Source of the DNA: Candidatus Woesebacteria bacterium
Lineage (GTDB): Bacteria; Patescibacteriota; Microgenomatia; UBA8517
Length of the DNA: 64,000 nt
Assembly (NCBI GenBank): GCA_016700095.1
Contig: CP065002.1
Location: 304,463-368,462 of the forward strand
Direction of reading: 5' to 3'
A program made the translations under genes and the position numbers. The stretch's first letter is position 1. Each line of letters begins with the position of its first letter. A model generated the notes under the pieces. That model did not search any database and was not told where the DNA came from. It worked only from the letters and a program-made list of their open reading frames with translations. Positions 582 through 26,643 of this stretch are shown here, one piece after another.

Positions 582-3500
582 TTGTTAACACTGCCCATGA
601 GAACAAAATTAAATAGCTCCCAGAAAATAGATATTATAAATAGGGCTCTTTCGGGTGGATCAGTCACTGAAATCTGCAAAGATATAGGTATATCTAGGGT
701 TTTGTTCTATAGATTGCTTCAGAGATACAAAAAGTATGGAGAAAAAGGATTAGAAGAACGTAAAAAAGGTCGCCCCAGAAAGTATAGAGCACAAAAATTG
801 ACAACTAATATTCAAACAACAAACAATATTATCTCGGCTCATGAGAGATTGCGCATGGTAGAAGAAGTTGTTAATGAAGGAAGGCGTCCATCAGTGATTG
901 CAAAGAAGTATCAAGTTTCAAGACCAACGTTATATAAATGGATCAAAAGATATAAAAAGTCTCAACAAACAAGAATTCATGCTGTCGAAAACAAAACCCC
1001 CAAGTATTCGAGGTACTATAGGCAAGCTCCCGAATTATATGAAGATGCTGTTTTGTCACTGGTTACTAAGTTTCCTGAATATGGTGTAAGAAAAATCGTT
1101 GCCAATCTTCCTCAAATTGGTAAAAAACCAATTCTTGGGCATCATGGAGTACAAAACGTTTTACAGCGCCACAATTTATCAACTCTAGATAGGCGTATGG
1201 CGTATGCCAAATCTCAAGAGACTGTTATCACAAGTTCGATTTCTGGTGCTCTTTCCAAAATCAATAATTTCTTTGCTATTCCTTTGGAAACTCGACAAAA
1301 GGTTGTGCGCTTTTCGGCAGTGTTTTTTTTAACATCTTTTTTCACCGTAGTCCTTTTTGGCATGGGTGGAGCTGTTACGACTACTTTTATTGGAGTTCCG
1401 CTCGTAAAACAAATCGGTTTAACTCTTGCGTTAGTTGCTCTATTTATGGGGTCGGTATTTTTTGTATATTCACTTAAATACTATCTTACACTTGTCATTG
1501 TACTTTCGTTTTCTCAACAAGAAGATACCAATACGCGCCTGCGCGGAAACATTCTCCATAAATTATTAGGCTTAGTTGATGAAAACACCGATAAATCTAA
1601 ATTGGATCAAAAGCAAGCTGTAGGTTTAACTCCAAATTTAGACCATATCAAATTATCTCGTTACCCGTTTATTTCTGTTCAGATTCCTTTCTATAACGAA
1701 AAAAACGTAGCTGAGCGCGCAATTGCGGCAAGTACAAATTTTGATTACAAAGGTGATTATGAAGTTATTGTTTGCGATGATTCCACGGATGAAACTTTTG
1801 AAATAGTTAGAAATTACCAAAAACAGTACTTAGCAAAGAATTGCCAGTTAAAAATAAGTAAGGGTGATGGCTGGGATATGTCCGAAGTTGAAGTCAGACC
1901 CGGAGTAATTCTTAAACACCTTCACAGAACAACGCGGAGTGGATATAAAGGTGCTTCGTTAAAACTTGCATTGACCTTGGTTGATAAAAGAACTGAATTT
2001 GTAAGTATTTTCGATGCAGATTTCGTGCCGTATCCCGACAGTTTGGATTTATTTTTGAAATACTTTAAATCACAAAACGGTGGATCTGAAAATTACACTT
2101 CAAATAACATTGCCGCAGTCCAAGGATATCAATGGCATGTATTAAATAAATCAGAAAACTGGATAACAAGGGGAGTAAGAAGTGAATATGCAGGAAGTTA
2201 TGTAATAGAAAGAAGTGGTCAAGAAATTTATGGAGGATTAAAACACATTTCAGGAAGTGTATATATGATTAGGCGCGATGTGTTGGAAGAAGTAGGATGG
2301 AGATCTTCGATCACCGAAGATTATGAGCTTACGCTTCGGTTATACAATGCAGGATACAAAGTAGTATATACCCCATACATTCAGGCTCCAGCTGAGTGTG
2401 TTTCCACTTTGAAAAGGTTAATCAGACAAAGGATGAGGTGGGCAGAAGGACACAGTTTCAATGTCAAACTTATGTGGAAGAAATTATTAATTGGAAGATG
2501 GGAGTTGGCTAATAGTTCATCCACTGACTCGCATCAAGTTCATTCTTTGCATGGTACTAAAATGATGCGGGATGACAAAAAGGTATTCATTCCTAGTCCT
2601 CTAACCGTGGCTGAGAAAGTTGAATTTGTATTTAACATTCCTTACTACCTTCAAGCATTTCTATTTCTAATCGGGACTTTTGCCTGGTTACTCTCAGAGG
2701 CTGTATTCCAGGTAAGACTGCCTTTCTGGACTACTGTTTGGGGTTGGAGCCTCATCCTTACCAACATGTTTTCCTTGCCTTTGGTTAACGCAGTCGGCCT
2801 TTTCCTGGAAGAAAGTGAGGAAAGAGACTATCTTGGGCTTTTGTCATTTGTGGCACTTAGTTATATATTGGTTCCATTTCAGGCTTATTCGTCAGTTAAG
2901 GGTTTTATTCAAAAAGAAGAAGGGCCCTGGTTTAGAACTCCCAAAACTGGAAGAATTACAGACGTTTTCGCCCGAGGCAGGTTTTATCGTTTTATATCAG
3001 GAATTTTGCCGAAAAATTCAGGTAATAGAAATGAGGCACTAAGCGACAGTCTAAATACTGGTGCCTATTCACAAATGTCCAACTCGTATTTGTCGATGGT
3101 TACGGCAAACAATATTTTTAACACCTTTTCGATAAAACGAAAAACACAACGGTGGGTAGGTAAGCTTGCCTTGACTTCAATGGTTGCAGTTTCAATGTTG
3201 ATTGTGAGTTATGCACCGTATATCCCAAGCGGAAAGGTGAGTGTTGCAGCAGCTAATACGGGGGCAATACTGGCAGATAAAGCAATTGACAGCGACCAAC
3301 CAGTTGTGAATAAAGCAGGTAAAGCGCTCAATACAAATAATTTGGAAACAAATAAGGATGGTTTTACATTAACCTCTGACAATAAAGACTTCAAGATTAC
3401 AGATTCACCAAGTTTTCGTTTACAAGCCAGAACGAATTTCAAAGATAGGTTGGCAATAAATTTCGGCAACATCTTTAAAGGCAAAAATGAAAAGAAGGCG

Positions 3501-6500
3501 AGAATAATTAATGCTAAGGTAGTTAACCATAAAGGCAATGAATATGACGTTGGAATATTAGACGATAAGAATGGATATGAACTAGTTGTTGATTCCAATA
3601 ACTTGTCTCCGGGGTTATATGATTTAGTTGTTGAAGACAATCTGGGTAATAGTATTGCACAAGATTTTAGTTGGGGAGTGCTGGCAATTAACACCAACAA
3701 ATCGATTTACACGAAAGGGGAGAATGCCGAGTTGTCGTTTGCCGTACTCAATGAAGATGGGGAAATGGTATGTGATGCAAAATTAGAATTAGGAATTAGA
3801 AATTCGGAATTAGGAATCGATGAAACACTGTCAACCAATGACGGCTCAATACGTGTGACTCCCGGGTGCAATAGTAAAGAAATGTTATTAACTCCCGATT
3901 ATGAAGCGGAATATAAATTGGGGAGTATGGGTATTTATGAACTTACTTTGACTGCTACTACACATAATGGAAGCTATACAATTACTGACTCAATTGAGGT
4001 TCGAAAATCGGTAGAGTTTGACATAGAGCGTATTAGTGCGACACGTATTTATCCACTTTTAACGTACCCCGTGATATTTAATGTTATCCCGGAAAAGGAC
4101 TTTCAAGGAGTAATCACAGAAACGGTTCCTGCAGACTTTGCGATTGTTCGGATTACAGACGAAGAACTGAAAAATTATAGTACTAAAGAAAACAGCGTTG
4201 GTTCAAGTAAATTCTTAGACATCAAAAAACAGGGTGGTGTAGGGATAATTGAATGGCAGGTAAATTGGAAAAAAGGAGAAACTTATCATTTTGGCTATAA
4301 ATATGATGCTCCGGATAAAAGCCCAGCTCTTTACACTTTGGGTCCTTTGCAAATTGATGATTTTAGTGAAGCAAGAGTTTGGCAGATAGCGGTGGATGCA
4401 ATTTCAGGTATAACCGCCCGCAATTATGCGGTTGAAAATAGTAGTGATACAACCATAGCGGTATCTCCGGATGCTGCTATTACTGTCGGAAAAATTGCGA
4501 TCGTTTCGTGTGTGACTGATAATACAGCAACATCTGATGGGCCATCCACAGACCATTCATTGAGCGATACTGACGGGCATACTTGGAACAAGGTATTTGA
4601 AGAAACTGATTCTGCCGGTGCTGCTGCTGATGGTTCAACCACCTCATTGTGGTGGACGAAGGTTACAAGTGAAATCGGGACAGGTGATTCAATTACTTTG
4701 ACGTTAGGAACTGCCCGATCGGACAAGATTATTGCAATTGTAGAAGCTACTGTCGGAGCGGGTAATACCTTTGTCGCGATCCCTTCATCAGCTATCGATC
4801 ACTCAAATTCAGCTACCTCTTTGTCTGATGTTCAATCCGGGCTTACTAACCGGGAATATCTATTTTTTGGCTTGTTTGGAGCGGAAGGTGAAGACACTGC
4901 TAAAACTCCTATTGCCAACTATACCGAACAACACGACCGAGTGAGTACGACAACAGGTACAGCTGCCGTCAATGTGCAAATGCATGTCGGCACCCGAATC
5001 CTTACAGGGACTGGTGACACTTGGACAAGTTCGGCAGTCACTTTTACTAATGGTATCCAGTCTCTGACAGCATTTTATGAAGTTTCAAGTACCATAACTG
5101 TTTCCGGAAATGTATATAATTTTGGTACTTCGAGTGCTCTTACTGAATGTGATGCAAGTGGAGCAACACATGAATTAAGTTTGAGAGTTGGATCAACAAC
5201 CTATACCACAAGTTGTGATGCTTCAGATTCAGGTGCATATTCCTTCACTTCAGTTACACCTCCCTCGGGTGGATCGGGGATGGTGGTTTGGATTGATGAT
5301 GCCGAAGCTTCCGAGACAGATGGTGCAGCAGTTATTCAATACGATGGATCAGGTGATTCAACCGGAAATTCTTTTTACGATGATGCCGTGACTATTCTCA
5401 CTGATGATGGCAGTGGTGTCACGATTGATATGATGGATGCGTATGACAGTGGCGGTGATGCAGACATTCCCTATACTGCTACAAGTGGATCCCCCGATAC
5501 GCTTACGGTTTCCGATAATTATACATTGCTTATACCTTCTGGTGAGGTGTTTGCTCCGGGAGGGAATTTAAATAACGGTTCGGGAGCCGGAATAGATAAT
5601 ATTAATATATCAGGAACCTATACCGCAGCTACCGGGGAATCGATACTCGTTTCCGGTACCTGGACCCAGTCTGGTACCTTCACCTCAAGTACTTCCACTG
5701 TCACCTTTGATGCTCCTGGTGCTACAACTGAGGATATTGTTACAACAGGAAGTGGAGCATTTAACAATGTTGTCTTTAATGATGGGGAAGGTGGTGCCAC
5801 TTGGGAGATTGAAGATCCTCTGGATGTGGATGGTAACTTTACCATAACAGGTGGGACAGTGGATGTTGTAAGTGGAGAAGATAATCAGATTAACGTAGGA
5901 GGAAACTGGACCAATGATGATACTTTTGTGGAAAGAAGTGGAAAGGTAGTCTTTGATACTTCAACTACTGCTACCCTAGATAGTAACTGTTCCGATGTGG
6001 GTACTTGTACCAATGAGAATTTCTACGACCTGGAACTATCCAAAGCAAGTTCGGGGAATACCGTTACTTTGACTAACTTTGGTATACGGGTAACTAATAC
6101 CTTAACCCTCACTACGGGGACTTTGGTGCAAGGAGCATATAATGTCCGGGTTGAGGGGGCAACTGCAGTATCAGTAGCCTCAAATGGTATCTGGAGTAAT
6201 ACTTCAACAGGAGACGTGATCCTTGGTGGCTCCTTTGCCAATAGTGGCATAGTAACCATGCAGGGAACAACAAGCGCTTGCGGAGAAACTGATGCAATTT
6301 CAATCACCTCAACTTCAGGTGGAAGTCAAAGGAGTTGGACTAGTTTGGGAGGTACTTTCAACATGAATGATGTTTCGGTCCAGGACCAGGGAGGAAGTGC
6401 TGCAATTACAGTTTACTCTGGTACCAACGTCAGTGGTAACAATTCCAACTGGGTGTTTGAAGATTGTGTTACCAGTTCTACATCTTCTTCTGCTACAGGA

Positions 6501-8333
6501 CATTCATTCCAAAGAAAGACATTCTACGATGATGAAAATGAAACCTTCTGGAGGTTTTACCATGATGGTGATGAAGTTGACATAGAATATTCTAAAGATA
6601 GTGGTGATACCTGGAGTTCTACTACTGCCTTGGCATATGACACCAATGACTTTTCTGTCTGGTGGAAAGCAATCACGGTTGGAGAAACCACCACTGAATA
6701 TGTATGGATGGCAGTTACCACGTCAGATGATATCCTGGTCAGACGCGGGACATTAGGATCAACATCAGTCACCTGGGACAGTGAAGCCAATGTGGTTTCA
6801 CTTAATGGCACAGGAGCATCTGACACCTACTCATACCCATATATTTCGTTGGATGATGCAAACTATATGTGGGTGGGAGCAAGACATTACAATGGAACTA
6901 ACTATACGTATAAGACAGTAAGAAGTGATGCTTCTGACACCGGTAATGCCACCTGGAGTGGAGTAGGCTTTGGTTCTACTGTTCCCGTATCCCAAGTATC
7001 AGCTGACCAAACAAATGCAAATGTCTTTGGCAACATTGTTCCACTTAATGGCCAAGACATGTATGCAGCCTTTGTCAGTAACACTCTTCTTCAGGGTTGT
7101 GTCTGGGACCACAGTGACGCTGCCTGGGAAGATAGTGATGGGGCAAGTTGTGTTAGTACCGGTGGAAGTGCACCTGTATTTCGTGGAGAATCTTCTTCAA
7201 CTTTTACAACAGCAGCCAGCGTTGTGGTAAATAAACCGACAGGGACAGTCGATAACGACATTATGCTTGCAATTATTTATAAGGAAAATACCGCAGCAGT
7301 AACAGCACCATCAGGCTGGAATTATATTGATGGAGAAACACCGACGACTGATCATGATGTAATTGTTTACTGGAAAAGGGCGAGTTCGGAAGGTAGTAAC
7401 TACACCTGGAGTTGGACAGGAAGTACTTGGAGCGGGGGAGCGATTATGTCATATAGTGGTGCGATAACAACAGGAGATCCGGTAAATACTTATTCCGCCA
7501 ACAGCGCCTCATCAGGACAAACCTTGACCGCAACGGGTGTGACGACAAGTGTTGACAACACGACAATTGTTGCTTTGGGAGCACATTGGAATACGGGTAC
7601 GTATTCAGGACCAACCGGATATACTGTTCGAGCAACACCTCAATCTATGAGGCTTTCTGACAAAACCCAAGCCTCTGCGGGGGCTACAGGAGATGCTGTC
7701 ATGACAACATCTGCAAACAGTTCATCCTGGACTGCACATTTGGTTGCACTCAAACCTGCAGGTACACCCGGGAGTAGAGATGCAATTGATACTGTACCAA
7801 GTGGATTAAGCAAAAATATATCGGCCGTTGTTGATACTACCAATTACGATGTTCACCTTCTTTTTGTAGACGATGAATCAACAGATCAGGTAAGTTACAA
7901 AAGATGGGACAAGATAAACCAGGAATGGGATGTAACTGCAACCCTAGTTGCAGGTGGAACAAGTGATACCGATGCTTACGTATCCCTCTCGTATGATACG
8001 GATGCAAGTGATCTTTACGCAATCTGGATAGACACATCTACAAATCACATCTTCTACACAGCTTGTGACATATCAACACAGTGCAGTTTGGCCAGTGACT
8101 GGATAGTAGGAGTAGAAGAGGAGATAGACTGGCATACAGAAACACAACCAACCAACTTAACCAGTAACTACTCAAGTGGAACCAATGTCTTTGCTCAGTG
8201 GTCTGATGGATCAGGTTCACCATACTCTGTTGAGTGGGATATCATTGTGGTGCCGGAGTGGATTTGGTTAATTATTGTTGCCGGTCCGATTTTGCCACTT
8301 ATGGGTAAATTTAGAAAGAAAAGACATCAATGA
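582..8333 (+). CDS. Giant fusion protein (2583 aa): N-terminal transposase-like HTH modules, processive GT2 core, TM bundle, huge surface region, C-terminal VPE-hydrophobic-basic tail
   Basis: Uninterrupted 7.75 kb ORF. HTH motifs: 'GGSVTEICKDIGISRVLFYRLLQRYKKYG' and 'RRPSVIAKKYQVSRPTLYKWIKRYKK'. GT2 motifs: 'IVCDDSTDE' (DxD), 'FDADFVPYPD', 'ITEDYELTL' (TED), 'QRMRWAEGH' (QxxRW). TM helices before and after the GT domain. About 1700 aa T/S/G/D-rich C-terminal region. Tail 'VPEWIWLIIVAGPILPLMGKFRKKRHQ'. Confidence 0.85.
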   Translation: MLTLPMRTKLNSSQKIDIINRALSGGSVTEICKDIGISRVLFYRLLQRYKKYGEKGLEERKKGRPRKYRAQKLTTNIQTTNNIISAHERLRMVEEVVNEGRRPSVIAKKYQVSRPTLYKWIKRYKKSQQTRIHAVENKTPKYSRYYRQAPELYEDAVLSLVTKFPEYGVRKIVANLPQIGKKPILGHHGVQNVLQRHNLSTLDRRMAYAKSQETVITSSISGALSKINNFFAIPLETRQKVVRFSAVFFLTSFFTVVLFGMGGAVTTTFIGVPLVKQIGLTLALVALFMGSVFFVYSLKYYLTLVIVLSFSQQEDTNTRLRGNILHKLLGLVDENTDKSKLDQKQAVGLTPNLDHIKLSRYPFISVQIPFYNEKNVAERAIAASTNFDYKGDYEVIVCDDSTDETFEIVRNYQKQYLAKNCQLKISKGDGWDMSEVEVRPGVILKHLHRTTRSGYKGASLKLALTLVDKRTEFVSIFDADFVPYPDSLDLFLKYFKSQNGGSENYTSNNIAAVQGYQWHVLNKSENWITRGVRSEYAGSYVIERSGQEIYGGLKHISGSVYMIRRDVLEEVGWRSSITEDYELTLRLYNAGYKVVYTPYIQAPAECVSTLKRLIRQRMRWAEGHSFNVKLMWKKLLIGRWELANSSSTDSHQVHSLHGTKMMRDDKKVFIPSPLTVAEKVEFVFNIPYYLQAFLFLIGTFAWLLSEAVFQVRLPFWTTVWGWSLILTNMFSLPLVNAVGLFLEESEERDYLGLLSFVALSYILVPFQAYSSVKGFIQKEEGPWFRTPKTGRITDVFARGRFYRFISGILPKNSGNRNEALSDSLNTGAYSQMSNSYLSMVTANNIFNTFSIKRKTQRWVGKLALTSMVAVSMLIVSYAPYIPSGKVSVAAANTGAILADKAIDSDQPVVNKAGKALNTNNLETNKDGFTLTSDNKDFKITDSPSFRLQARTNFKDRLAINFGNIFKGKNEKKARIINAKVVNHKGNEYDVGILDDKNGYELVVDSNNLSPGLYDLVVEDNLGNSIAQDFSWGVLAINTNKSIYTKGENAELSFAVLNEDGEMVCDAKLELGIRNSELGIDETLSTNDGSIRVTPGCNSKEMLLTPDYEAEYKLGSMGIYELTLTATTHNGSYTITDSIEVRKSVEFDIERISATRIYPLLTYPVIFNVIPEKDFQGVITETVPADFAIVRITDEELKNYSTKENSVGSSKFLDIKKQGGVGIIEWQVNWKKGETYHFGYKYDAPDKSPALYTLGPLQIDDFSEARVWQIAVDAISGITARNYAVENSSDTTIAVSPDAAITVGKIAIVSCVTDNTATSDGPSTDHSLSDTDGHTWNKVFEETDSAGAAADGSTTSLWWTKVTSEIGTGDSITLTLGTARSDKIIAIVEATVGAGNTFVAIPSSAIDHSNSATSLSDVQSGLTNREYLFFGLFGAEGEDTAKTPIANYTEQHDRVSTTTGTAAVNVQMHVGTRILTGTGDTWTSSAVTFTNGIQSLTAFYEVSSTITVSGNVYNFGTSSALTECDASGATHELSLRVGSTTYTTSCDASDSGAYSFTSVTPPSGGSGMVVWIDDAEASETDGAAVIQYDGSGDSTGNSFYDDAVTILTDDGSGVTIDMMDAYDSGGDADIPYTATSGSPDTLTVSDNYTLLIPSGEVFAPGGNLNNGSGAGIDNINISGTYTAATGESILVSGTWTQSGTFTSSTSTVTFDAPGATTEDIVTTGSGAFNNVVFNDGEGGATWEIEDPLDVDGNFTITGGTVDVVSGEDNQINVGGNWTNDDTFVERSGKVVFDTSTTATLDSNCSDVGTCTNENFYDLELSKASSGNTVTLTNFGIRVTNTLTLTTGTLVQGAYNVRVEGATAVSVASNGIWSNTSTGDVILGGSFANSGIVTMQGTTSACGETDAISITSTSGGSQRSWTSLGGTFNMNDVSVQDQGGSAAITVYSGTNVSGNNSNWVFEDCVTSSTSSSATGHSFQRKTFYDDENETFWRFYHDGDEVDIEYSKDSGDTWSSTTALAYDTNDFSVWWKAITVGETTTEYVWMAVTTSDDILVRRGTLGSTSVTWDSEANVVSLNGTGASDTYSYPYISLDDANYMWVGARHYNGTNYTYKTVRSDASDTGNATWSGVGFGSTVPVSQVSADQTNANVFGNIVPLNGQDMYAAFVSNTLLQGCVWDHSDAAWEDSDGASCVSTGGSAPVFRGESSSTFTTAASVVVNKPTGTVDNDIMLAIIYKENTAAVTAPSGWNYIDGETPTTDHDVIVYWKRASSEGSNYTWSWTGSTWSGGAIMSYSGAITTGDPVNTYSANSASSGQTLTATGVTTSVDNTTIVALGAHWNTGTYSGPTGYTVRATPQSMRLSDKTQASAGATGDAVMTTSANSSSWTAHLVALKPAGTPGSRDAIDTVPSGLSKNISAVVDTTNYDVHLLFVDDESTDQVSYKRWDKINQEWDVTATLVAGGTSDTDAYVSLSYDTDASDLYAIWIDTSTNHIFYTACDISTQCSLASDWIVGVEEEIDWHTETQPTNLTSNYSSGTNVFAQWSDGSGSPYSVEWDIIVVPEWIWLIIVAGPILPLMGKFRKKRHQ

Positions 8334-8914
8334 ATCAGAAAAAAGTATTTAAAGATATATTGATTGTGACGGCAATTGTATTGTCGCTACTTCCCGTTAT
8401 TGTAACTTTTAGTGCAATACTAACCACGCTTTTCGACAAATTAAGTTGGTATGTGTGGCTGCAACGCGAAGTTGTACCCGTGGAATCCAGAATGGTTGCG
8501 GTATTGGTGAAGGTTGTCGGTATCGATGCTCAAATTACATCACATATTAATTTTTCCATGGTGTTAACCAGGGGTGAGACAATAATTCCAGTTCAATTGG
8601 AATGGAACTGTCTTGGTTGGCAAAGCATGATTTTACTTGTTACTACATTTGTAACAGGTTTGCGTGGGCGCTACAAATTGTCGTCGAAAATTGAAACAGT
8701 GATTATTGGCATACTCGGGACGTTTCTGTCAAACCTTTTTAGAATGGCTTTTATTGTTACCCTCGCTTATTACTGGAATAGCTTCGCAGCGATGATAATT
8801 CATGATTATTTCGCAAGCTTTATTGCCGTAGCTTGGATGCTATTTTTCTGGTGGTTTAGCTATAGCTATGTGCTTGATGAAAAAATAGAGAGTAACTTAA
8901 ACGAAGTGAAATAA
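8330..8914 (+). CDS. Mini exosortase/archaeosortase-domain membrane protein (194 aa), XrtG-like candidate
   Basis: Start overlaps the stop of the upstream giant (ATGA at 8330-8333). 4-5 predicted TM helices. Conserved with the 14085 paralog: 'WNCLGWQS' (Cys), 'GLRG(R/N)Y' (Arg), 'SNLFRMAF'/'INIFRLVF' (N-x-x-R), 'HDY/HNY', and C-terminal 'SYSYVL(D/E)EK'. Confidence 0.55.
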   Translation: MNQKKVFKDILIVTAIVLSLLPVIVTFSAILTTLFDKLSWYVWLQREVVPVESRMVAVLVKVVGIDAQITSHINFSMVLTRGETIIPVQLEWNCLGWQSMILLVTTFVTGLRGRYKLSSKIETVIIGILGTFLSNLFRMAFIVTLAYYWNSFAAMIIHDYFASFIAVAWMLFFWWFSYSYVLDEKIESNLNEVK

Positions 8915-9335
8915 CCCAAGTTAGTTTTCTATTCAACAATCTATATAATTTAAAGATTGATTTGAGGGTATTAGTGTGTACCCAAAAACTTCAAAGGATA
9001 TCTTACTGTGTCTTTTTAGCAGTGTGATATTAATAAACCAAACGAAGAAGTAGTAAATAATTTCTTTTGTTTTGTTTAATAATCACAAAATAACCAATTT
9101 AGTGATTGAAGTTAATATATTTAATGGTCTTATATATTTACTATATATTATTAGTTATATATATATTATACCTATAATATTAGTAAGTTTTTATAGTTTA
9201 ATTTGGGGGCAAATAAAAAAACGGAAATTGTTTATGGAATTTTGTAATTTGAGTAATTGCAAAAATATCTCAAAACAATATCTAGCTTAGTAATATATTT
9301 AACAGTTTTCAAACAACAAATAATACTAATTGTTT

Positions 9336-14861: not shown

Positions 14862-15167
14862 TTACAATAGACTTCGAAGTCGAAAGTCGGGAAAGAGTGT
14901 TTTTTGCAGATTTAGGTCATGACCTTTGGCTACCCTAATTGCTTCAAGAATTGTTTTTATGCCTGCGATGTTAAGTTTGCGTTCAAATGATAAATATTTA
15001 AGAAACTGCAAATCGTTAAGGTCTGCGACACTAAACATTCTTCGTTTGGTTTTGGTGCGGTGGGGAGTTAGAAGTCCCGCTTTTTCATAAGCCATGATAG
15101 TTCGTATATGCAATTCAAGCAGTTTTGCCGCTATGGAAATAGTCAGAATTGGTTGATCGTTATTCAT
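14862..15167 (-). CDS. MerR-family transcriptional regulator (101 aa)
   Basis: 'LTISIAAKLLELHIRTIMAYEKAGLLTPHRTKTKRRMFSVADLNDL' is a MerR-type HTH plus the start of a dimerisation helix. Confidence 0.6.
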   Translation of the reverse strand: MNNDQPILTISIAAKLLELHIRTIMAYEKAGLLTPHRTKTKRRMFSVADLNDLQFLKYLSFERKLNIAGIKTILEAIRVAKGHDLNLQKTLFPDFRLRSLL

Positions 15168-19100: not shown

Positions 19101-22100
19101 TCAAGCTAAAGTGTTGGATAAAAACGGAAACGAAGCATTAGACGTGGAAATAACGAAGGACACCGAAAGTAAATTTGATGTGACTATTAATCCTCAAGGT
19201 AGAGTCGTGCCGGGAGTTTACAGCTTGCATGTGAGTGACAATTTTGGCAACGTCATAGTCCAGGATTTTTCCTGGGGTGTACTGGTAATTAATACCAACA
19301 AATCAGTCTTTCACACAAACGAAGAAGCGAAAATCTCCATGGCGGTTCTCGATGAAAAAGGCGTGATGGTGTGTGATGCAAAACTGGAATTAGGAATTAG
19401 AAATTTGGAATTGGGGATAGATGAAACTCTGTCGACACAAAATGACAGGATCAAAGTGACGCCAGGGTGTGGAAAAAAGGACATGGTTCTAACACCTGAT
19501 TATGAAGCCGGTTTTACGGTATCTGGCAAGGGTGTGTATGAAATGATTTTGACTGCGGTAACGAAAAACGGCAGGTATTTAATTGCGGATAGCTTTGAGG
19601 TAAGGGATTATGTCGACTTTGATATAGAGAGGATGACGGCGACTAGAATTTATCCGGCTCTTGAATATCCTGTATTTATCCAAGTTGTCCCAACATCGTC
19701 TTTTTCGGGCATCGTCTCCGAAAGGGTTCCGGCTGATTTTGTTGTTTCCGAATTCACACATGAAGATTTCAGTGAATATCAAATGGGACAAAATGCCAGT
19801 TCTCAATTCTTGGGAACGAAGATGGCCGGCGATTATCAATATATTGAATGGTTAGTCAGCTGGGACAAGGGTGAAAAATATACGATTGGTTATAAATATG
19901 ATGCACCTGATATTAGCCCCGAGTACTATACGCTTGGGCCCGTTAGTATTGGTGGATTTACGGAAGGAAGAGAATGGCAAATTGCAGTTGATGCGATAAG
20001 TCCTGTGGTTGGATTTTTCACCAACACAACAAGAGCTTGGACTGTGGCTGAGGATACTGACTTAGATTTATCGCAACCCAATCCGATGGATGGGGATTTG
20101 ATGCTAGCAAGTATTGCAATAAGGCCTTCAGCTAGTACTGTAAATACACCCACTGGATGGACAGCAGCAGGATCATGGACGGGCACAGACAGTGCGGATC
20201 CTGAGGCAGACAATACAGGATCAGTAGGGCTTTATTGGTTTTATAAAGTAGCAGATGGTAGTGAGGGTGAGGCAACACAGAAATTTACCGAAAACGGTAC
20301 GACTTCTGTTTGGATGGGGGATATTATGCTGCTTCGGTCGGGAACAAAAGCATACAGCATTTCGGCAGGTGGTTATTCAATAAACGGCGATACGGGAACG
20401 TGGGGAGGAACATTGGACACCGATATAGGATTAACTAGTGGTGACATTGTACTTATTGCCGGAGCTCAGAATGGAAATCCTTCGGCGTCATCCGCCCAAA
20501 ACATTACAGCTACAGGTATTAATGTCAAAAGCACTGTTAGGGAACATGGTGAATTTGCAAGTACGACAGGTAATAATATCGAAGTTGACTTAGCCGAAAC
20601 GCAGATTTGGGAAGGTACAAATACAGATACTCCTGTAATTACTTTTACACAGGGGACGCCTGTTTCGGGTGCGGTGAGTGCTATTAGAATCCGCCAAGGA
20701 ACAGGCACAAGAAGGACGGATACATTTGTTCGGTCAAATGGTTTAGCTGCAGCTGGAACTGCTTCAGTATCTGTGCCATATCCGGATCATGATATTGGAG
20801 ACTTGCTTGTCATGATGATTTCAACTAGAGATGATGCTGAGGTTACTCCTACAACCCCAGCTACTTGGACTTCACTTGGAACATATAACGGTGGAGCAGG
20901 TTCATATGCTGCTGATTCGGGGAATGCGAGAATTACTGCTTTTTATAAACGCGCCGAAGCGAGATGGGCTGGGTCGCAGGTAGTTGCCATTTCTGGAGGC
21001 GATATGGCACTTGGAAGAATGGTGAGTATTCATATGGATGATGCTGGGTCATGGAACTTTGATGTGGATGGGGGAGCCGATAGTAGTGCGGGAACAGCAT
21101 GGCAAGTAGATGGTGAAGCAGGAATTGATGTAGACAGTGCAAATGGAGGTGATGTTGTTTTGGTTGCGTCAACCACTAACACGGATGCAAGAACTTACTC
21201 GGGATATGGATTAACAATAACCGGAGCAACAATTACAGGTTTTGGAGAAAACGCTGAAATAATTTCCTCAACTGGTAATGATCAAACGATGACTTTTGGA
21301 CATGGAGAAGTAACAGATGGGTCAGCAACTGGTGTTACACCAGTCTATACAATGACGGCAAATGGTACTTCTGGTAACAACCCCGCTGGAGTGAGCATGA
21401 TAATTAAAGTAATTGGTGTAGCTCAATCATTAGCTACAACACCTGTCATGGGATTCTTTTCACCAACTGCGACTTGGACGGCTGCTGCTGACACTTATTT
21501 GGATTTAAGACAACCCGATCCAAGAGAAGGGGACTTAATGTTGGCGAATATTGTGATTAGACCATCTACCAGCACAGTTGACACACCTACTGGCTGGACC
21601 AGCCTTGGTTCATGGACCGGTACAGATGGAGCAGATCCTGAAGCAGAAGATACGGGTTCTGTTAGAAATTATTGGTTTTATAAAGTTGCCGATGGATCGG
21701 AAGGAACTGCTACTCAGCGGTTTGAGGAACAAGGGACGACTTCCGTCGTAATGGGAACGATAACTCAAGTTAGGTCATCAACAAAAGCTTATAGTTTGTC
21801 GGCAGGGGGTTATTCGATAGATGGGGATGCGACAAATTGGAATGGGACATTGGACACAGATATTGGGCTAACTCAAGGAGATTTAGTATTGGTTTCTGCA
21901 TCGCAAAATGGAAATCTTAGCAATACATCAGCTTGGGATATTAATGCGACAGGCGTTAACTACAAGATGGAAGTGAGAGAGCATGGCGAATATGCCTCAA
22001 CAACAGGCAATGACGTAGAAGTGGGATTGGGTGTGACACTCATTTGGGAAGGAACAAATTCTGCTACACCTACTGTAAACTTAACACAATCAGCTGCAGC

Positions 22101-25100
22101 ATCAGGTGCAGTAGCGGCAGTCCGAATACGCCAAGGTACAGGCACTAATCGAACAGATACTTGGGTAAGATCAGCAGGTGCACAAATAGCGGGAACTACA
22201 ACTGTTGCGGTTCCATATCCCGAAAATGAAATCGGGGATATGTTAATTATGTTTGTTGGTAGCAGAAACACAGATAATACTACACCAGAAACGCCAACAG
22301 GTTGGACAAGTTTGGGAACATATACAGGTGGATCAGGTACATTCGGAGCTGATGCTGGTAATGCCAGGACGACTGCTTTTTATAAAGAGGTAGAAGAAAG
22401 AGCAAGCGGAACTCAGACTGTGGTCATACCATCGGGAACAACCTCTGTTGGACAAATGGTAAGTCTACACAAAGATGATGTTGATTCATGGACAATTGAT
22501 GCAGATGGAGGAAGTGATAATAGTGGTGGAACTGGTTGGTCGGCTCCAGGAACAGGAATTGATTTAAATGATGACGATTTGGTTATTGTTGGATCAACGA
22601 TGAATACTGATGCATATACTTATTCGGGGCACGCGATGGCGGCAACAAATGTCACATGGGGAGATGTAACGCAGTCTACAGCATTTAACTCAGGAACGGG
22701 AAACGACATGTCACTTGAAATTGTGACAGCAAGGGTTGATAGTATTGTTGGTGGATCGGTAACAAGTGCTCCGACTTTATCGTCAACAGCAAGCGGATCG
22801 ACAGCTAATGCCCCAACCGGTTCAAGCTTTTATGTAAAAATTTCAGGAAATGCTGCTTTAGACTTTTCCGGCATTATTTATACCGGCGAAGGCAGTTCTC
22901 CTTTGGATTGTTCGTCTGGCGGAAACAGGAATGTTGCTTTAAGGGTGGATGGAAGTGGGACATATAGCGCGGATTGTAGTTTGGATACAGGGGAGTGGGA
23001 AATTACGGGAGTTACGGCAGCCGCTGGTACAATTGTCACTGTCTTTTTGGATGGAGAAACTGAAAAGGCTGTGGTAATTACAGAATCATCAGGCGTAGGT
23101 TTAGACAATCTTGATCTTTACCAAAATCATGTGATTGTAAGACATGATAATTCGGGAAGTCTGACCATTGATGATATGAATCAATTTGACGGTGGAACAA
23201 CTGACTGCAGCTCGGGAACAGGTGACTCTGATGTGCAGTTTTGTGCAGTAAGTGGTACACCTGATACGTTGACGGTGGATGACGGTCAGGAACTTTACAT
23301 TTGGACAGGGAATTCTTTTGCTCCGGGAGGTACAGTTACAGTTGATGATATAAAAATTGTAGGTACATATACAGCTGCAGCAAGTGAGAGTATTACCGTT
23401 TCCGGTACCTGGACCCAGTCTGGTACCTTCACCTCAAGTACTTCCACTGTCACCTTTGATGCTCCTGGTGCTACAACTGAGGATATTGTTACAACAGGAA
23501 GTGGAGCATTTAACAATGTTGTCTTTAATGATGGGGAAGGTGGTGCCACTTGGGAGATTGAAGATCCTCTGGATGTGGATGGTAACTTTACCATAACAGG
23601 TGGGACAGTGGATGTTGTAAGTGGAGAAGATAATCAGATTAACGTAGGAGGAAACTGGACCAATGATGATACTTTTGTGGAAAGAAGTGGAAAGGTAGTC
23701 TTTGATACTTCAACTACTGCTACCCTAGATAGTAACTGTTCCGATGTGGGTACTTGTACCAATGAGAATTTCTACGACCTGGAACTATCCAAAGCAAGTT
23801 CGGGGAATACCGTTACTTTGACTAACTTTGGTATACGGGTAACTAATACCTTAACCCTCACTACGGGGACTTTGGTGCAAGGAGCATATAATGTCCGGGT
23901 TGAGGGGGCAACTGCAGTATCAGTAGCCTCAAATGGTATCTGGAGTAATACTTCAACAGGAGACGTGATCCTTGGTGGCTCCTTTGCCAATAGTGGCATA
24001 GTAACCATGCAGGGAACAACAAGCGCTTGCGGAGAAACTGATGCAATTTCAATCACCTCAACTTCAGGTGGAAGTCAAAGGAGTTGGACTAGTTTGGGAG
24101 GTACTTTCAACATGAATGATGTTTCGGTCCAGGACCAGGGAGGAAGTGCTGCAATTACAGTTTACTCTGGTACCAACGTCAGTGGTAACAATTCCAACTG
24201 GGTGTTTGAAGATTGTGTTACCAGTTCTACATCTTCTTCTGCTACAGGACATTCATTCCAAAGAAAGACATTCTACGATGATGAAAATGAAACCTTCTGG
24301 AGGTTTTACCATGATGGTGATGAAGTTGACATAGAATATTCTAAAGATAGTGGTGATACCTGGAGTTCTACTACTGCCTTGGCATATGACACCAATGACT
24401 TTTCTGTCTGGTGGAAAGCAATCACGGTTGGAGAAACCACCACTGAATATGTATGGATGGCAGTTACCACGTCAGATGATATCCTGGTCAGACGCGGGAC
24501 ATTAGGATCAACATCAGTCACCTGGGACAGTGAAGCCAATGTGGTTTCACTTAATGGCACAGGAGCATCTGACACCTACTCATACCCATATATTTCGTTG
24601 GATGATGCAAACTATATGTGGGTGGGAGCAAGACATTACAATGGAACTAACTATACGTATAAGACAGTAAGAAGTGATGCTTCTGACACCGGTAATGCCA
24701 CCTGGAGTGGAGTAGGCTTTGGTTCTACTGTTCCCGTATCCCAAGTATCAGCTGACCAAACAAATGCAAATGTCTTTGGCAACATTGTTCCACTTAATGG
24801 CCAAGACATGTATGCAGCCTTTGTCAGTAACACTCTTCTTCAGGGTTGTGTCTGGGACCACAGTGACGCTGCCTGGGAAGATAGTGATGGGGCAAGTTGT
24901 GTGGGTAGAAGTGATTGGCTTTCAGGATGGGATCAAAGACTTGAAATTACAGTTGACAATACTAACATAGACAGCAATCTTACACATTTTCCATTACTTT
25001 TAACTTTAGGATCATCCGTGGGAACGGAAAGCGATGATGTAAGTACTGTTTTTGATGAACTTGCAAGCGATGCCAATAGAAAAAAGATTGCCGTAACCAA

Positions 25101-26643
25101 ATCTGATGGTGTAAGCGAAATATATGTCGAGATCGAGAAATGGAATGATGCTAGTGAACAAGCTTGGCTTTGGGTGTCAAGCAGTACACTTACCCTTTCA
25201 AGTTCCGCAAATACAACGCTTTACCTTTACTATGATTCCTCCCATGCAGACAATACAACATATGTGGGAGATCCCAATTCTACTCCCGCAGAGAGTGTAT
25301 GGGATAGTAATTATGTAATGGTTCAACATTTTAGTGAAACAAGCGGAACACACTATGATAGTACAAGCAACAATAATGATTCCACTTCAATTACTGTTAC
25401 TACGCAAGGAACAACAGGACATATTGATGGATCTGATGATTTCAATCCAAGCGCTGACAAAGTGAATCTGGGTAGTAACAGTAGTATTGATGATATTATG
25501 AACGGTGGTGGAACTGTAACTGCTTGGATAAACCCAAATAATGCTGGTGAATTTGATAATGGACGCATAGTTGACAAAGGCGAAAATAATGATGCCGGCT
25601 GGACATTTTTGCTTGGAAACTCCTCAAGGAGACTTGAGTTTAGATATGGTTCCGCATCTGATTGGGCACAGTGGTATACATCATCTGCCACAGTACCCAC
25701 GGGCTCGTTTAGTTACGTCGGGTCGACATATGACTCGTCATCTGATACCAATAGTCCGTTGTTATTTATTGACGGACAGTCAGTTTCTGTAACTACGGGA
25801 GATGGTGCTTCTTGGGGATCACCGACTAGTGATGCAAGCGAACCTGTTGTAGTTGGAGCCCGTACTGATGGAGTCAGTTATGCTAGACAATTTGATGGAC
25901 TGATAGATGAGGTGCGTTTGTCGGATATTATTCGTTCTGCTGCCTGGCTTAAGGCTGACTACTACTCGTCGGATGACAATCTAATATCTTGGGGAAGTGA
26001 AGAAACTGGATCTAGTGGTAGTAAGGACAGCATTGATACTGTACCAAGTGGATTAAGCAAAAATATATCGGCCGTTGTTGATACTACCAATTACGATGTT
26101 CACCTTCTTTTTGTAGACGATGAATCAACAGATCAGGTAAGTTACAAAAGATGGGACAAGATAAACCAGGAATGGGATGTAACTGCAACCCTAGTTGCAG
26201 GTGGAACAAGTGATACCGATGCTTACGTATCCCTTTCGTATGATACGGATGCAAGTGATCTTTACGCAATCTGGATAGACACATCTACAAATCACATCTT
26301 CTACACAGCTTGTGACATATCAACACAGTGCAGTTTGGCCAGTGACTGGATAGTAGGAGTAGAAGAGGAGATAGACTGGCATACAGAAACACAACCAACC
26401 AACTTAACCAGTAACTACTCAAGTGGAACCAATGTCTTTGCTCAGTGGTCTGATGGATCAGGTTCACCATACTCTGTTGAGTGGGATATCATTGTGGTGC
26501 CGGAAAACATCTGGTTTCTAATGTTATTATCTCCGCTTTTTACCAAACCTAAGCATAGAAAAAAGATAAAAATGTGGATGATAAAGCTATGTAAAAAATT
26601 GTCCAAAAATTTGGTGACTAAGATTATCGGACAAAAACTCTAA
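16114..26643 (+). CDS. Giant fusion protein paralog 3 (3509 aa): three transposase-like HTH, processive GT2, TM bundle, ~2900 aa surface region with tandem modules and LamG, VPE-CTERM-like tail
   Basis: HTH: 'ITKLAKKYKVSRKTLYSWLKRYKN' and 'VSSLSDSYAISRKTLYQWIRKIQ'. GT2: 'LVCDDSTDE', 'FDADFVPYPD', 'ITEDYELTL', 'QRMRWAEGH'. LamG: 'FDGLIDEVRLSDIIRSAAWLKADYY'. Tail: 'VPENIWFLMLLSPLFTKPKHRKKIK...'. Confidence 0.85.
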   Translation: MSARCKSKYSPSEKETIVLECIGNNKSITKLAKKYKVSRKTLYSWLKRYKNSANRNKNKALVNAYVKGKDHPKSKVSSIKSKVIRIVSAHPEWGARSISNELKKQGCDIGFFAVHTFLQSMSIERRDLRESFATNYTGPGRYMPDVKLEIINKFRQGETVSSLSDSYAISRKTLYQWIRKIQNISDVSKYDLADAYVSGEKHPFAVYPKIEAHLLSIVKKHPDYSIHKLAELLPVSSWTVWSTLSRNGLSTYTERQRFANQGGVIGKTDYSPQVRSTLEQFMPTLAPAPPPVSSSRIKTNLKPSYKQLARHFLFSAISSLIVALTTRYWVSILISASSFSEGIGLVLATVALFSGGIFFLYSLKYYLTLAVVLSYSQDEKENADEKSPTKFISWLLGKNGSSHNFGKSGLEPNLEHVNLKNHPYISVQIPFFNEKYVAERAISAAINFDYKGDYEVLVCDDSTDETTQIIRSLQQKYLPDNKKLKIFINKEEGWELSTVEVRPGVLLKHLHRTSRSGFKGGALKVALNLVDPRCEFITIFDADFVPYPDSLDLFLKYFKLQNNGSEDYTHSDVAAVQGYQWHVLNKSENWITRGVRSEYAGSYVIERSGQEIYGGLKHISGSVYMIRRAPLTEVGWDTSITEDYELTLKLYEKGYRVVYTPYIQAPAECVSTLKRLIRQRMRWAEGHSHNVKLMWKKLLFGSWEEKESVGSSNSKCFVPSPLTAAEKIEFLFNMPYYLQAFLFLIGTFAWLLSETVFQARLPFWTVIWGWSLILTNMFSLPLVNAVGLFLEESEDRDYVGLVSFTLLSYIVVPFQAYASLKGFLEKEEGGWFRTPKTGRITDVIARGRFYRFISGILPGKENVSSLDTNYLSMVTANNIFNTFSIKRKTQRWVGKLALTSMVAVSLLIVSFAPYIPIGRNGVLAFDANSIVSPGEAKHTSDFSFENETNNFSITGLSRDFKVDEVPGFHLDVKTALVERVRINFNQVIGKELSKTIQAKVLDKNGNEALDVEITKDTESKFDVTINPQGRVVPGVYSLHVSDNFGNVIVQDFSWGVLVINTNKSVFHTNEEAKISMAVLDEKGVMVCDAKLELGIRNLELGIDETLSTQNDRIKVTPGCGKKDMVLTPDYEAGFTVSGKGVYEMILTAVTKNGRYLIADSFEVRDYVDFDIERMTATRIYPALEYPVFIQVVPTSSFSGIVSERVPADFVVSEFTHEDFSEYQMGQNASSQFLGTKMAGDYQYIEWLVSWDKGEKYTIGYKYDAPDISPEYYTLGPVSIGGFTEGREWQIAVDAISPVVGFFTNTTRAWTVAEDTDLDLSQPNPMDGDLMLASIAIRPSASTVNTPTGWTAAGSWTGTDSADPEADNTGSVGLYWFYKVADGSEGEATQKFTENGTTSVWMGDIMLLRSGTKAYSISAGGYSINGDTGTWGGTLDTDIGLTSGDIVLIAGAQNGNPSASSAQNITATGINVKSTVREHGEFASTTGNNIEVDLAETQIWEGTNTDTPVITFTQGTPVSGAVSAIRIRQGTGTRRTDTFVRSNGLAAAGTASVSVPYPDHDIGDLLVMMISTRDDAEVTPTTPATWTSLGTYNGGAGSYAADSGNARITAFYKRAEARWAGSQVVAISGGDMALGRMVSIHMDDAGSWNFDVDGGADSSAGTAWQVDGEAGIDVDSANGGDVVLVASTTNTDARTYSGYGLTITGATITGFGENAEIISSTGNDQTMTFGHGEVTDGSATGVTPVYTMTANGTSGNNPAGVSMIIKVIGVAQSLATTPVMGFFSPTATWTAAADTYLDLRQPDPREGDLMLANIVIRPSTSTVDTPTGWTSLGSWTGTDGADPEAEDTGSVRNYWFYKVADGSEGTATQRFEEQGTTSVVMGTITQVRSSTKAYSLSAGGYSIDGDATNWNGTLDTDIGLTQGDLVLVSASQNGNLSNTSAWDINATGVNYKMEVREHGEYASTTGNDVEVGLGVTLIWEGTNSATPTVNLTQSAAASGAVAAVRIRQGTGTNRTDTWVRSAGAQIAGTTTVAVPYPENEIGDMLIMFVGSRNTDNTTPETPTGWTSLGTYTGGSGTFGADAGNARTTAFYKEVEERASGTQTVVIPSGTTSVGQMVSLHKDDVDSWTIDADGGSDNSGGTGWSAPGTGIDLNDDDLVIVGSTMNTDAYTYSGHAMAATNVTWGDVTQSTAFNSGTGNDMSLEIVTARVDSIVGGSVTSAPTLSSTASGSTANAPTGSSFYVKISGNAALDFSGIIYTGEGSSPLDCSSGGNRNVALRVDGSGTYSADCSLDTGEWEITGVTAAAGTIVTVFLDGETEKAVVITESSGVGLDNLDLYQNHVIVRHDNSGSLTIDDMNQFDGGTTDCSSGTGDSDVQFCAVSGTPDTLTVDDGQELYIWTGNSFAPGGTVTVDDIKIVGTYTAAASESITVSGTWTQSGTFTSSTSTVTFDAPGATTEDIVTTGSGAFNNVVFNDGEGGATWEIEDPLDVDGNFTITGGTVDVVSGEDNQINVGGNWTNDDTFVERSGKVVFDTSTTATLDSNCSDVGTCTNENFYDLELSKASSGNTVTLTNFGIRVTNTLTLTTGTLVQGAYNVRVEGATAVSVASNGIWSNTSTGDVILGGSFANSGIVTMQGTTSACGETDAISITSTSGGSQRSWTSLGGTFNMNDVSVQDQGGSAAITVYSGTNVSGNNSNWVFEDCVTSSTSSSATGHSFQRKTFYDDENETFWRFYHDGDEVDIEYSKDSGDTWSSTTALAYDTNDFSVWWKAITVGETTTEYVWMAVTTSDDILVRRGTLGSTSVTWDSEANVVSLNGTGASDTYSYPYISLDDANYMWVGARHYNGTNYTYKTVRSDASDTGNATWSGVGFGSTVPVSQVSADQTNANVFGNIVPLNGQDMYAAFVSNTLLQGCVWDHSDAAWEDSDGASCVGRSDWLSGWDQRLEITVDNTNIDSNLTHFPLLLTLGSSVGTESDDVSTVFDELASDANRKKIAVTKSDGVSEIYVEIEKWNDASEQAWLWVSSSTLTLSSSANTTLYLYYDSSHADNTTYVGDPNSTPAESVWDSNYVMVQHFSETSGTHYDSTSNNNDSTSITVTTQGTTGHIDGSDDFNPSADKVNLGSNSSIDDIMNGGGTVTAWINPNNAGEFDNGRIVDKGENNDAGWTFLLGNSSRRLEFRYGSASDWAQWYTSSATVPTGSFSYVGSTYDSSSDTNSPLLFIDGQSVSVTTGDGASWGSPTSDASEPVVVGARTDGVSYARQFDGLIDEVRLSDIIRSAAWLKADYYSSDDNLISWGSEETGSSGSKDSIDTVPSGLSKNISAVVDTTNYDVHLLFVDDESTDQVSYKRWDKINQEWDVTATLVAGGTSDTDAYVSLSYDTDASDLYAIWIDTSTNHIFYTACDISTQCSLASDWIVGVEEEIDWHTETQPTNLTSNYSSGTNVFAQWSDGSGSPYSVEWDIIVVPENIWFLMLLSPLFTKPKHRKKIKMWMIKLCKKLSKNLVTKIIGQKL

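Follow-up and report, generated by a model that had tools for sequence, protein, structure and literature searches.

We analyzed a 64,000-nt stretch of DNA (the window) from an uncultivated Candidatus Woesebacteria bacterium of the Candidate Phyla Radiation (CPR), located on a contig of 1,274,238 bp. The window contains three giant open reading frames (ORFs), each of which joins N-terminal helix-turn-helix (HTH) modules, a family 2 glycosyltransferase (GT2), a long predicted extracellular region (ectodomain), and a C-terminal tail resembling a sorting signal. The first two are directly followed by genes of the exosortase/archaeosortase family. We consider it likely that the three represent tandem copies of a surface-biogenesis cassette of the Microgenomates group, comprising synthase, cargo, and exosortase, which builds a variable glycoprotein coat. 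The genes concerned are:

582..8333 (+): giant ORF1, 2583 amino acids (aa); NCBI QQS39286.1 (2578 aa), named 'glycosyltransferase'; two HTH regions, GT2, ectodomain, and VPE tail
8330..8914 (+): exosortase/archaeosortase-family gene A, 194 aa; QQS39287.1; invariant C94, R138, and H158
10008..14063 (+): giant ORF2, 1351 aa; NCBI version of 1323 aa, named 'DUF2341 domain-containing protein'
14085..14657 (+): exosortase/archaeosortase-family gene B, 190 aa; QQS39290.1; 39% identical to gene A
16114..26643 (+): giant ORF3, 3509 aa; NCBI QQS39292.1, named 'glycosyltransferase'

None of the giant ORFs contained an internal stop. Their coordinates and lengths were exactly those recorded in a first-pass annotation of this DNA, which had described three intact paralogs; the NCBI start sites of ORF1 and ORF2 differ slightly, the proteins being otherwise the same. 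That annotation had also correctly read the anatomy of all three paralogs, i.e. HTH modules, a processive-type GT2 between transmembrane (TM) helices, an ectodomain rich in Thr, Ser, Gly, and Asp, and a sorting-type tail. It had overlooked the partner genes, namely the exosortase/archaeosortase-family ORFs directly after ORF1 and ORF2. Hydropathy profiles of the giant ORFs displayed about two TM segments N-terminal to the GT2 domain and a cluster of them C-terminal to it, then one further TM segment preceded by Lys/Arg, and lastly a hydrophobic stretch at the C terminus. Within ORF1, with the corresponding regions of ORF2 and ORF3, the parts are:

600..1199 (+): HTH modules, aa 7-206, predicted cytoplasmic, resembling the DNA-binding N terminus of IS481/IS630/IS3 transposases but without a DDE domain; ORF2 aa 30-298, ORF3 aa 6-260
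1671..2741 (+): GT2 catalytic domain, aa 364-720, with CDDSTD, FDADF, ISGSVY, ITED, and QRMRW; ORF2 aa 459-811, ORF3 aa 423-751
2928..2951 (+): WFRTPKTG motif, aa 783-790, a putative counterpart, by position and sequence, of the BcsA FxVTxK gating loop; ORF2 aa 891-898, ORF3 aa 831-838
3129..3251 (+): last TM segment, aa 850-890, signal-peptide-like with a K/R n-region and a hydrophobic core, ending in KVSVAAA followed by NTG; ORF2 aa 948-984, ending in KPAEA followed by WYG; ORF3 aa 884-924, ending in NGVLA followed by FDA
3252..8249 (+): predicted extracellular part of about 1660 aa, acidic, with 42% T/S/G/D and without a recognized Pfam family; ORF2 aa 985-1321, DUF2341 and LamG-like; ORF3 aa 925-3461, with an internal duplication of about 305 aa and DUF2341 plus Laminin_G_3 near the end
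8250..8330 (+): C-terminal three-part signal VPEWIWLIIVAGPILPLMGKFRKKRHQ; ORF2 tail VPELVILLLPLAILIPFVVKYHEKRRRLVV; ORF3 tail, atypical, VPENIWFLMLLSPLFTKPKHRKKIK...

The motifs YNEK/FNEK, CDDSTD, FDADF, ISGSVY, ITED, QRMRW, and WFRTPKTG were common to all three proteins. Pfam models Glyco_trans_2_3 and Glyco_tranf_2_3 matched the giant ORFs (E 1e-17 to 1e-20), with hydrophobic segments on both sides of the domain. Both expectations of the first-pass annotation, i.e. a full processive GT2 motif set (CDDSTD, FDADF, TED, QRMRW) in each ORF and a GT2 domain located between TM segments, were thus borne out. The closest solved proteins by sequence were BcsA cellulose synthases, whose catalytic motifs align one for one. 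An AlphaFold2 model of ORF2 aa 300-1000 reached a mean predicted local distance difference test score (pLDDT) of 74.5, with 85-96 in the GT domain and 50-85 in the TM regions. With this core model, Foldseek retrieved the BcsA proteins of E. coli and Rhodobacter, the hyaluronan synthases (HAS) of a Chlorella virus and Xenopus, PcManGT, chitin synthases, and plant CesA (E 1e-16 to 1e-9). In the structure comparison, 325-401 residues aligned with BcsA, HAS, and CesA, including the membrane and interface helices, i.e. the fold resembles that of the solved synthases in these helices as well. By fold class the core belongs with the processive synthases of the BcsA/HAS type and is a putative sugar-polymerizing enzyme.

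With BcsA, HAS, PcManGT, CesA/Csl, chitin synthase, and PgaC/NodC, several of them top structural matches, the core shares the GT-A fold, the D, DxD, TED, and QxxRW residues, the interface and TM helices, and the gating-loop-like FRTPK. In contrast to these enzymes, the giant proteins lack PilZ and add an N-terminal HTH region as well as an exported C-terminal megadomain; identity is only ~15-23%. The best NCBIfam glycosyltransferase similarities were to PgaC/IcaA, CelA, and NodC, with 33-77 bits compared to cutoffs of 422-992, which is far too low for assignment to any of these named equivalogs.

Each giant protein contained two HTH regions (Pfam HTH_28, HTH_23, HTH_Tnp_1, and HTH_32; E 1e-9 to 1e-17) with four HTH motifs in total, in line with the DNA-binding-type modules annotated initially. 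Modules of these families also form the N-termini of IS481, IS630, and IS3 transposases. NCBIfam matches covered only the N-terminal ~110 positions of these transposase models and scored far under the cutoffs; for ORF1, positions 2-114 of the 284 positions of the IS481 model were matched with 83 bits (cutoff 224). No DDE catalytic domain was matched after the HTH modules in Pfam or NCBIfam, and the giant proteins do not belong to these transposase families. They also differ from them in that the HTH region is stably fused to a membrane enzyme across the family. Sequence searches found no solved relatives of the HTH region.

The predicted extracellular parts were acidic and consisted to 42-43% of Thr, Ser, Gly, and Asp, compared to 23-25% in the N-terminal parts, which agrees with their initial description as extracytoplasmic. 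Their lengths ranged from 0.33 to 2.5 thousand aa (kaa). LamG domains had been reported for every ORF. This held for ORF3, the only one with a Pfam match (Laminin_G_3, E 1e-16), and by homology for ORF2, which has a DUF2341 domain and aligns to the DUF2341 and LamG segment of ORF3; it did not hold for ORF1, in which no surface domain was recognizable and for whose ectodomain no solved relatives were found by sequence. DUF2341 is often present in giant Patescibacteria proteins (PMC11809585). An AlphaFold2 structure of the ORF2 ectodomain was not used (pLDDT 38.7). ORF1 and ORF3 shared two blocks, ~17.7 kb apart:

5648..7153 (+, ORF1) = 23397-24902 (ORF3): shared block 1, 1506 nt, 100% identical, ectodomain cassette
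7785-8257 (ORF1) = 26032-26504 (ORF3): shared block 2, 473 nt, 99.8% identical, ending exactly at the VVPE codons

Their near-identity suggests recent gene conversion or exchange of ectodomain cassettes. Identical blocks of this kind are also a possible assembly hazard.

In the window, a three-part signal consisting of VPE, a hydrophobic stretch, and a K/R-rich end was found only on the giant ORFs. The consensus over 129 tails of the family was [LIV]-T-[VI]-P-E-N-x-LLLL-(P)-L-A-P-F-[LI]-P-x-x-x-KK-x-KKRR; Pro occupied positions +11/+14, and the median number of residues following PE was 32. A long extension, defined as at least 150 residues past the gating motif, was present in 165 family members. 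Of these, 133 ended in PE, TM, and a basic cluster; we assume that contig ends truncated most of the others. The ORF3 tail is atypical in that its hydrophobic run comprises only ~12 aa and is followed by ~25 extra residues. The tails had been described as sortase-signal-like. A three-part sorting-type tail is indeed present in each ORF, but it carries VPE and no LPXTG and does not qualify as a substrate of LPXTG sortases; no sortase was found among the window ORFs scanned.

The start codon of gene A overlaps the stop codon of ORF1 (ATGA), and gene B begins 21 nt after ORF2. Both products, which NCBI already labels 'exosortase/archaeosortase family protein', passed the TIGR04178 signature (41.0 bits for gene A and 37.0 bits for gene B; cutoff 23), as did 10 out of 10 orthologs. 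In an alignment of ten orthologs, Cys94 (in WNCxGWQS), Asn135, Arg138, and His158 were invariant. The proteins have about five hydrophobic segments, with the conserved residues at their edges and Cys94 at a TM edge. Two hallmarks of the exosortase/archaeosortase family were found, namely Cys/Arg/His in a polytopic membrane protein and, judged by tail consensus and gene adjacency, co-occurring substrates with motif, TM, and basic cluster. No solved relatives of the exosortase profile were detected by sequence. Because a gene of this family adjoins both ORF1 and ORF2, we interpret the tail as an exosortase-type signal that is probably cleaved.

Linkage between the two genes extended beyond the window. 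In all nine related loci fetched via homologs of the giant genes, an exosortase homolog of 170-210 aa lay downstream of the giant gene, either directly or at a distance of one to two genes. Where tested, the E-values were 1e-33 to 1e-53 (L001, L003, L005, L006, L007 (twice), L008, and L009); a homolog was also present in L010. The reverse search, starting from the exosortase, yielded 239 relatives in GTDB species genomes. In 44 of 74 GTDB loci, the exosortase was immediately preceded by the end of a tail-bearing ORF; such an ORF was located within 3 kb of it in 49 of 65 loci (51 of 65 when two variant tails read by eye are included).

When the GT core was used in an exhaustive, profile-free search, at least 388 clusters (50% identity) were represented among the matches with E 1e-30 or better. 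For each of the 150 best matches E was < 1e-150, and their lengths reached 3654 aa. The gating motif WFRTPKTG was kept in 174 of 182 family members; 165 of these 174 had the long C-terminal extension, and at least 500 aa preceded QxxRW in 165 of the 181 surveyed sequences with that match. Tandem paralogs of the giant genes were common in related loci. The largest member observed (4877 aa; L005 14344-20923+) has Kelch-type repeats in its ectodomain and stands in tandem with a 1640-aa paralog. A distant GT2 protein of a Methanosarcinales archaeon (P0058, 1402 aa) is 30% identical over the core and has no HTH; its GT2 is joined to an extensive multi-TM region and to FG-GAP repeats on the extracellular side, i.e. 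another lineage with a fusion of GT2 and extracytoplasmic sequence. Informatively named members of the GT family came from Microgenomates-group Patescibacteria, and informatively named exosortase relatives from Woese-, Chisholm-, Gottesman-, Curtiss-, Davies-, and Levybacteria as well as other Patescibacteria. Many third party annotation (TPA) 'binchicken' bins with the cassette are titled 'uncultured Gammaproteobacteria bacterium' (L012, L017-L019, and others). These titles are probably placeholders or wrong taxonomy, and we did not accept them as evidence for a wider taxonomic spread.

The last TM segment resembles a Sec signal peptide, with 3-6 K/R, a core of ~18 aa, Pro at -5/-6, Val or Ala at -3, and Ala at -1. 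An A-x-A-type site followed it in 42 of 49 homologs, compared to ~26 expected from shuffling, while the sequence of the segment itself was poorly conserved. A control region was likewise enriched owing to a conserved QAYAA motif, and the statistic is thus only suggestive. The first-pass annotation had described the synthase as covalently joined to its surface domain. This is true of the ORF, but the signal-peptide-like TM with its A-x-A-type site between GT2 and ectodomain suggests that it may describe the precursor only. In L010 (positions 6520-6625; also in L011), a single in-frame TGA (FYR*) interrupts what is otherwise a typical family member, leaving an HTH-GT2 gene of 937 aa and a second gene of 598 aa. 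The 598-aa product starts with MKPVGVRWVGK... at the last TM, is signal-anchored, has the same first ectodomain as ORF1 and ORF3, and is VPE-tailed. The TGA could be a nonsense mutation, an error, or a site of read-through. Apparent natural splits in L017, L022, L043, and L069 were rejected as evidence for modularity, since they were frameshift overlaps or N-gaps; a clean split occurred only in L010/L011.

In the cassette reading that we favor, each giant gene would give rise to one membrane precursor, whose two bipartite HTH modules and BcsA/HAS-type GT2 would face the cytoplasm. The final signal-peptide-like TM would start the export of the long, acidic, T/S/G/D-rich variable surface domain, and export would halt at the C-terminal signal of VPE, TM, and K/R. 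Most likely, by analogy with archaeosortase A, the downstream polytopic Cys/Arg/His exosortase (translationally coupled in the case of ORF1) would then recognize this signal, remove the TM and the basic tail, and transfer the new C terminus to an acceptor, for which a membrane lipid and a glycan from the attached synthase are candidates. Signal peptidase may in addition cut at the A-x-A-type site; we infer this step, like the topology, the exosortase cleavage, and the acceptor, whereas the analysis shows the domain anatomy, the fold class of the GT2, the conserved tail, and the linkage to the exosortase gene. The outcome would be a glycan-embedded, exchangeable protein coat, with cassette swapping between paralogs diversifying the ectodomains.

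Several observations weigh against this reading. The TM topology was derived from hydropathy and from an AlphaFold2 model with low-to-medium confidence in TM and linker regions. None of the NCBIfam sorting-signal models matched the three tails (E up to 10), which places them outside the PEP-, PGF-, PEF-, and Firmicu-CTERM classes, among others. Likewise, no named exosortase subfamily, ArtF and XrtY included, reached its cutoff in the ten orthologs, the nearest being ArtC (28.6 bits; cutoff 100), XrtG (16.6 bits; cutoff 103), and CrtC. What ties the putative specificity of the exosortase to this tail is gene linkage alone, and about a quarter of the exosortase loci had no tail-bearing ORF within 3 kb. 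In L034, L058, L074, and L014, exosortase paralogs directly follow TPR-repeat proteins (~650-990 aa) instead of tail-bearing cargo. ORF3 itself lacks a neighboring exosortase gene, and the hydrophobic run of its tail is shortened; tblastn found only genes A and B, and neither a third exosortase nor a remnant near ORF3. The L008 array has the same layout, in that its last giant gene likewise lacks an exosortase and precedes a gene for a PTPS_related membrane protein; processing of the ORF3 tail in trans is therefore plausible. Finally, an ectodomain still joined to the synthase at its N terminus would have its C terminus re-anchored without obvious purpose. The A-x-A-type site that would solve this problem is only statistically suggestive, and it is absent from the N terminus of the 598-aa L010 product.

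The components of the cassette are of known kinds, i.e. exosortase sorting, BcsA-type synthases, and fusions of the AcsAB type. Three-part C-terminal signals are cleaved by archaeosortase A (ArtA), whose substrate then becomes lipid-anchored; mutagenesis has demonstrated that the conserved active-site residues of the enzyme are required (reviewed in PMC6098224). The PEP-CTERM/EpsH system is linked to exopolysaccharide (EPS) loci (PMC1569441). With the EpsH/PEP-CTERM and ArtA/PGF-CTERM systems, the cassette shares (i) a polytopic enzyme with Cys/Arg/His and the TIGR04178 signature; (ii) substrates with motif, TM, and basic cluster; (iii) linkage to glycan or EPS loci; and (iv) cargo of the S-layer type. 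It differs from them in several ways. The motif is [VI]-P-E-N...P-F-[LI]-P instead of PEP or PGF, and no signal or named-subfamily model fits; the enzyme is small (~190 aa), with one enzyme per adjacent cargo gene instead of one for many cargos; the cargo is fused to GT2 and HTH modules; and the hosts belong to the CPR. The closest analogue in gene set is the XrtG system of Firmicutes, which combines a small exosortase with a Firmicu-CTERM protein and associated GT2s (PMC12854382). Weak full-length matches to TIGR03110 (XrtG) and TIGR03111 (its GT2) were obtained, but with 16.6 bits (cutoff 103) and 18.6-22.9 bits (cutoff 364), respectively, and without any Firmicu-CTERM match. The genes of that system are separate, whereas GT2 and cargo form one ORF here.

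A synthase and an extracytoplasmic partner translated as one chain and then proteolytically processed are known from AcsAB, a BcsA-BcsB fusion of Komagataeibacter/Gluconacetobacter (PMC4877109). The initial remark that such an architecture was not familiar from characterized systems therefore needs correcting with respect to the one-chain arrangement. It was too broad also for the gene set of GT2, exosortase, and C-terminal-signal protein, which is that of the XrtG system; for the fused form, it stands in so far as we found no published description. In AcsAB as here, the partner ends in a C-terminal TM. Unlike the AcsAB partner, the ectodomains here are not BcsB-like, vary hugely in size and content, and carry an exosortase-type signal with a dedicated exosortase. 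A literature search for exosortases or archaeosortases in Patescibacteria, CPR, or Microgenomates, or for fused GT2/HTH giants, returned no description. The novelty lies in how these parts are combined in CPR bacteria: a single ORF unites HTH modules with a BcsA-type synthase and exosortase cargo, the signal class is new, and the small exosortase, which belongs to no named subfamily, is paired one to one with its cargo.

Other explanations concern the fate of the fusion. A variant that would refine the cassette reading, and to which we assign a substantial chance, though somewhat less than even, is that the giant protein is a polyprotein. Signal peptidase I would cut after the internal signal-peptide-like TM and free the surface protein from HTH-GT2, and the fusion would then only secure 1:1 co-expression and co-localization, as in AcsAB. 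The signal-peptide-like features in 42 of 49 homologs and the processed AcsAB precursor (PMC4877109) speak for it, as does the downstream ORF of L010/L011, which starts exactly at the last TM, ends with VIPEN...KFKRQ, and precedes an exosortase gene. Yet the shuffling test was not clean, the distance of 21-34 aa from core to site is long for a signal peptide, and the A-x-A site is missing from the very protein that L010 provides; moreover, the L010 split is due to a single nonsense codon, the assemblies of L010 and L011 may share the same data, and the other apparent splits were artefacts. At the opposite end, the ectodomain could stay on the synthase permanently as an extracellular guide or carbohydrate-binding scaffold, with the C-terminal TM as a second stable anchor. 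BcsB, a periplasmic carbohydrate-binding partner with one C-terminal TM anchor next to BcsA, offers a model. DUF2341 and LamG domains (a concanavalin-like lectin fold) in ORF2 and ORF3 and the prevalence of the fused form across the family would suit such a scaffold. We nevertheless regard it as improbable: the tail is the sharply conserved VPE...PF[LI]P...KKxKKRR and not a generic TM, a Cys/Arg/His exosortase gene is tightly linked to it, and the ectodomains vary extremely both in length (0.3-4 kaa) and in content, unlike a catalytic partner. No BcsB-family periplasmic domain was found in the ectodomains either (Pfam, E up to 0.5), and hence the giant proteins are not BcsA-BcsB fusions.

The nature of the enzyme and of the ORFs themselves can be questioned in a similar way. 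Instead of a polysaccharide, the GT2 might make a glycolipid or lipid-linked sugar, like a monoglucosyl-diacylglycerol synthase or a polyprenol-phosphate glycosyltransferase, and this product could serve as acceptor or anchor for the exosortase or as donor for nearby GT-C-type enzymes. We give this little credence in view of the complete D, DxD, TED, and QxxRW set with the gating-loop-like motif, the structural alignment that extends through membrane and interface helices, and PgaC/IcaA, CelA, and NodC as best NCBIfam similarities; source names of uncharacterized proteins were not counted as evidence. That the giant ORFs are assembly chimeras, insertion sequences (the HTH part) joined to separate GT2 and surface-protein genes, or pseudogenes can be dismissed with near certainty. 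It is true that 1.5 kb of 100%-identical DNA in ORF1 and ORF3 can mislead assemblers, that the HTH modules resemble transposase N-termini, and that every protein of the window forms a singleton cluster. However, the repeats sit within the ectodomains and do not make the domain junctions, the ORFs are unbroken over up to 10.5 kb on a 1.27-Mb contig, and a transposase DDE domain is absent. A chimera is ruled out because the order of HTH, GT2, ectodomain, and tail is a family trait, found in 182 surveyed sequences from many independent assemblies and sources. The possibility of chimeric assembly had been raised in the first-pass annotation itself; the architecture recurs in hundreds of independent assemblies.

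The surroundings of the giant genes include regulator-like and envelope-related genes:

9336..9941 (-): HTH gene of the MerR family, divergently transcribed and preceding ORF2
14862..15167 (-): MerR/HspR-like gene, likewise divergent, preceding ORF3; shares 47% identity with its positional counterpart in L008
26670..28094 (+): polytopic membrane protein of the PTPS_related family (PF10131), directly after ORF3; 44% identical to its L008 counterpart

The layout of the array is thus conserved in L008, where the flanking orthologs are 44% and 47% identical, and a MerR gene was located upstream of the giant gene in L003, L005, L006, and L008. A regulatory role of the HTH modules or of the divergent MerR genes is possible. 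Neither an alignment of the three upstream regions nor a search for shared k-mers (at least 10 nt) revealed a shared operator for HTH/MerR proteins, and a scan for promoters and terminators remained at chance level. The PTPS_related protein after ORF3 is possibly part of the system. It opens an envelope glycan island (26670-48788), which encodes three GT-C-like PTPS_related (PF10131) proteins of 474, 1069, and 997 aa, two enzymes of family GT4, and four methyltransferases of class I. A response regulator, a dCache protein, and a protein with Wzy_C and TPR are also encoded there. These genes fit a heavily glycosylated coat, and the earlier notion of an 'envelope-building' function sits well with them. 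No Rfam or tRNA match was obtained in the window.

Further downstream, a 1925-aa protein (49509-55286, minus strand) has seven Laminin_G_3 domains and DUF2341 without a VPE tail. It is followed by a 183-aa four-helix protein (48929-49480, minus strand) that belongs to the 23S_rRNA_IVP/Avd-like family; in L001, the giant GT2 gene is likewise flanked by Avd/bAvd-like genes. From 59852 to 63968, at the end of the window, a 954-nt (318-codon) tandem repeat is present in at least five copies with 99-100% identity. It lies in two minus-strand ORFs (55279-61347 and 61265-63934), whose overlap coincides with one repeat spacing of 955 nt. Probably, the two represent one repeat protein of >2900 aa split by a 1-nt indel, which would be either a sequencing error or a real frameshift.

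Exosortases are widespread and mostly uncharacterized, and both their attachment target and their link to polysaccharide loci are open questions (PMC6098224, PMC1569441). Here, cargo, BcsA-type synthase, and dedicated exosortase are combined in one compact cassette, partly in one polypeptide and with one-to-one pairing, which therefore offers a minimal, reconstitutable test system. At the level of gene organization, the cassette provides strong evidence for a mechanistic coupling between cargo sorting and glycan synthesis. In a more far-reaching scenario, which we think rather unlikely, the exosortase would transfer the VPE-cleaved C terminus of the cargo onto a nascent glycan or glycolipid primer of its own synthase, yielding a covalent protein-polysaccharide coat, while the HTH modules would tether or regulate the DNA of the locus from the membrane, e.g. 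so that one paralogous coat replaces another through autoregulation or mutual exclusion. If true, the fusion would be a 'Rosetta stone' for exosortase function. For CPR/Patescibacteria, the results add giant surface proteins that diversify rapidly, make up a large family (at least 388 clusters), and likely form a cell coat mediating host attachment and phage exposure; the results also point to a common but hitherto undescribed envelope-building cassette.

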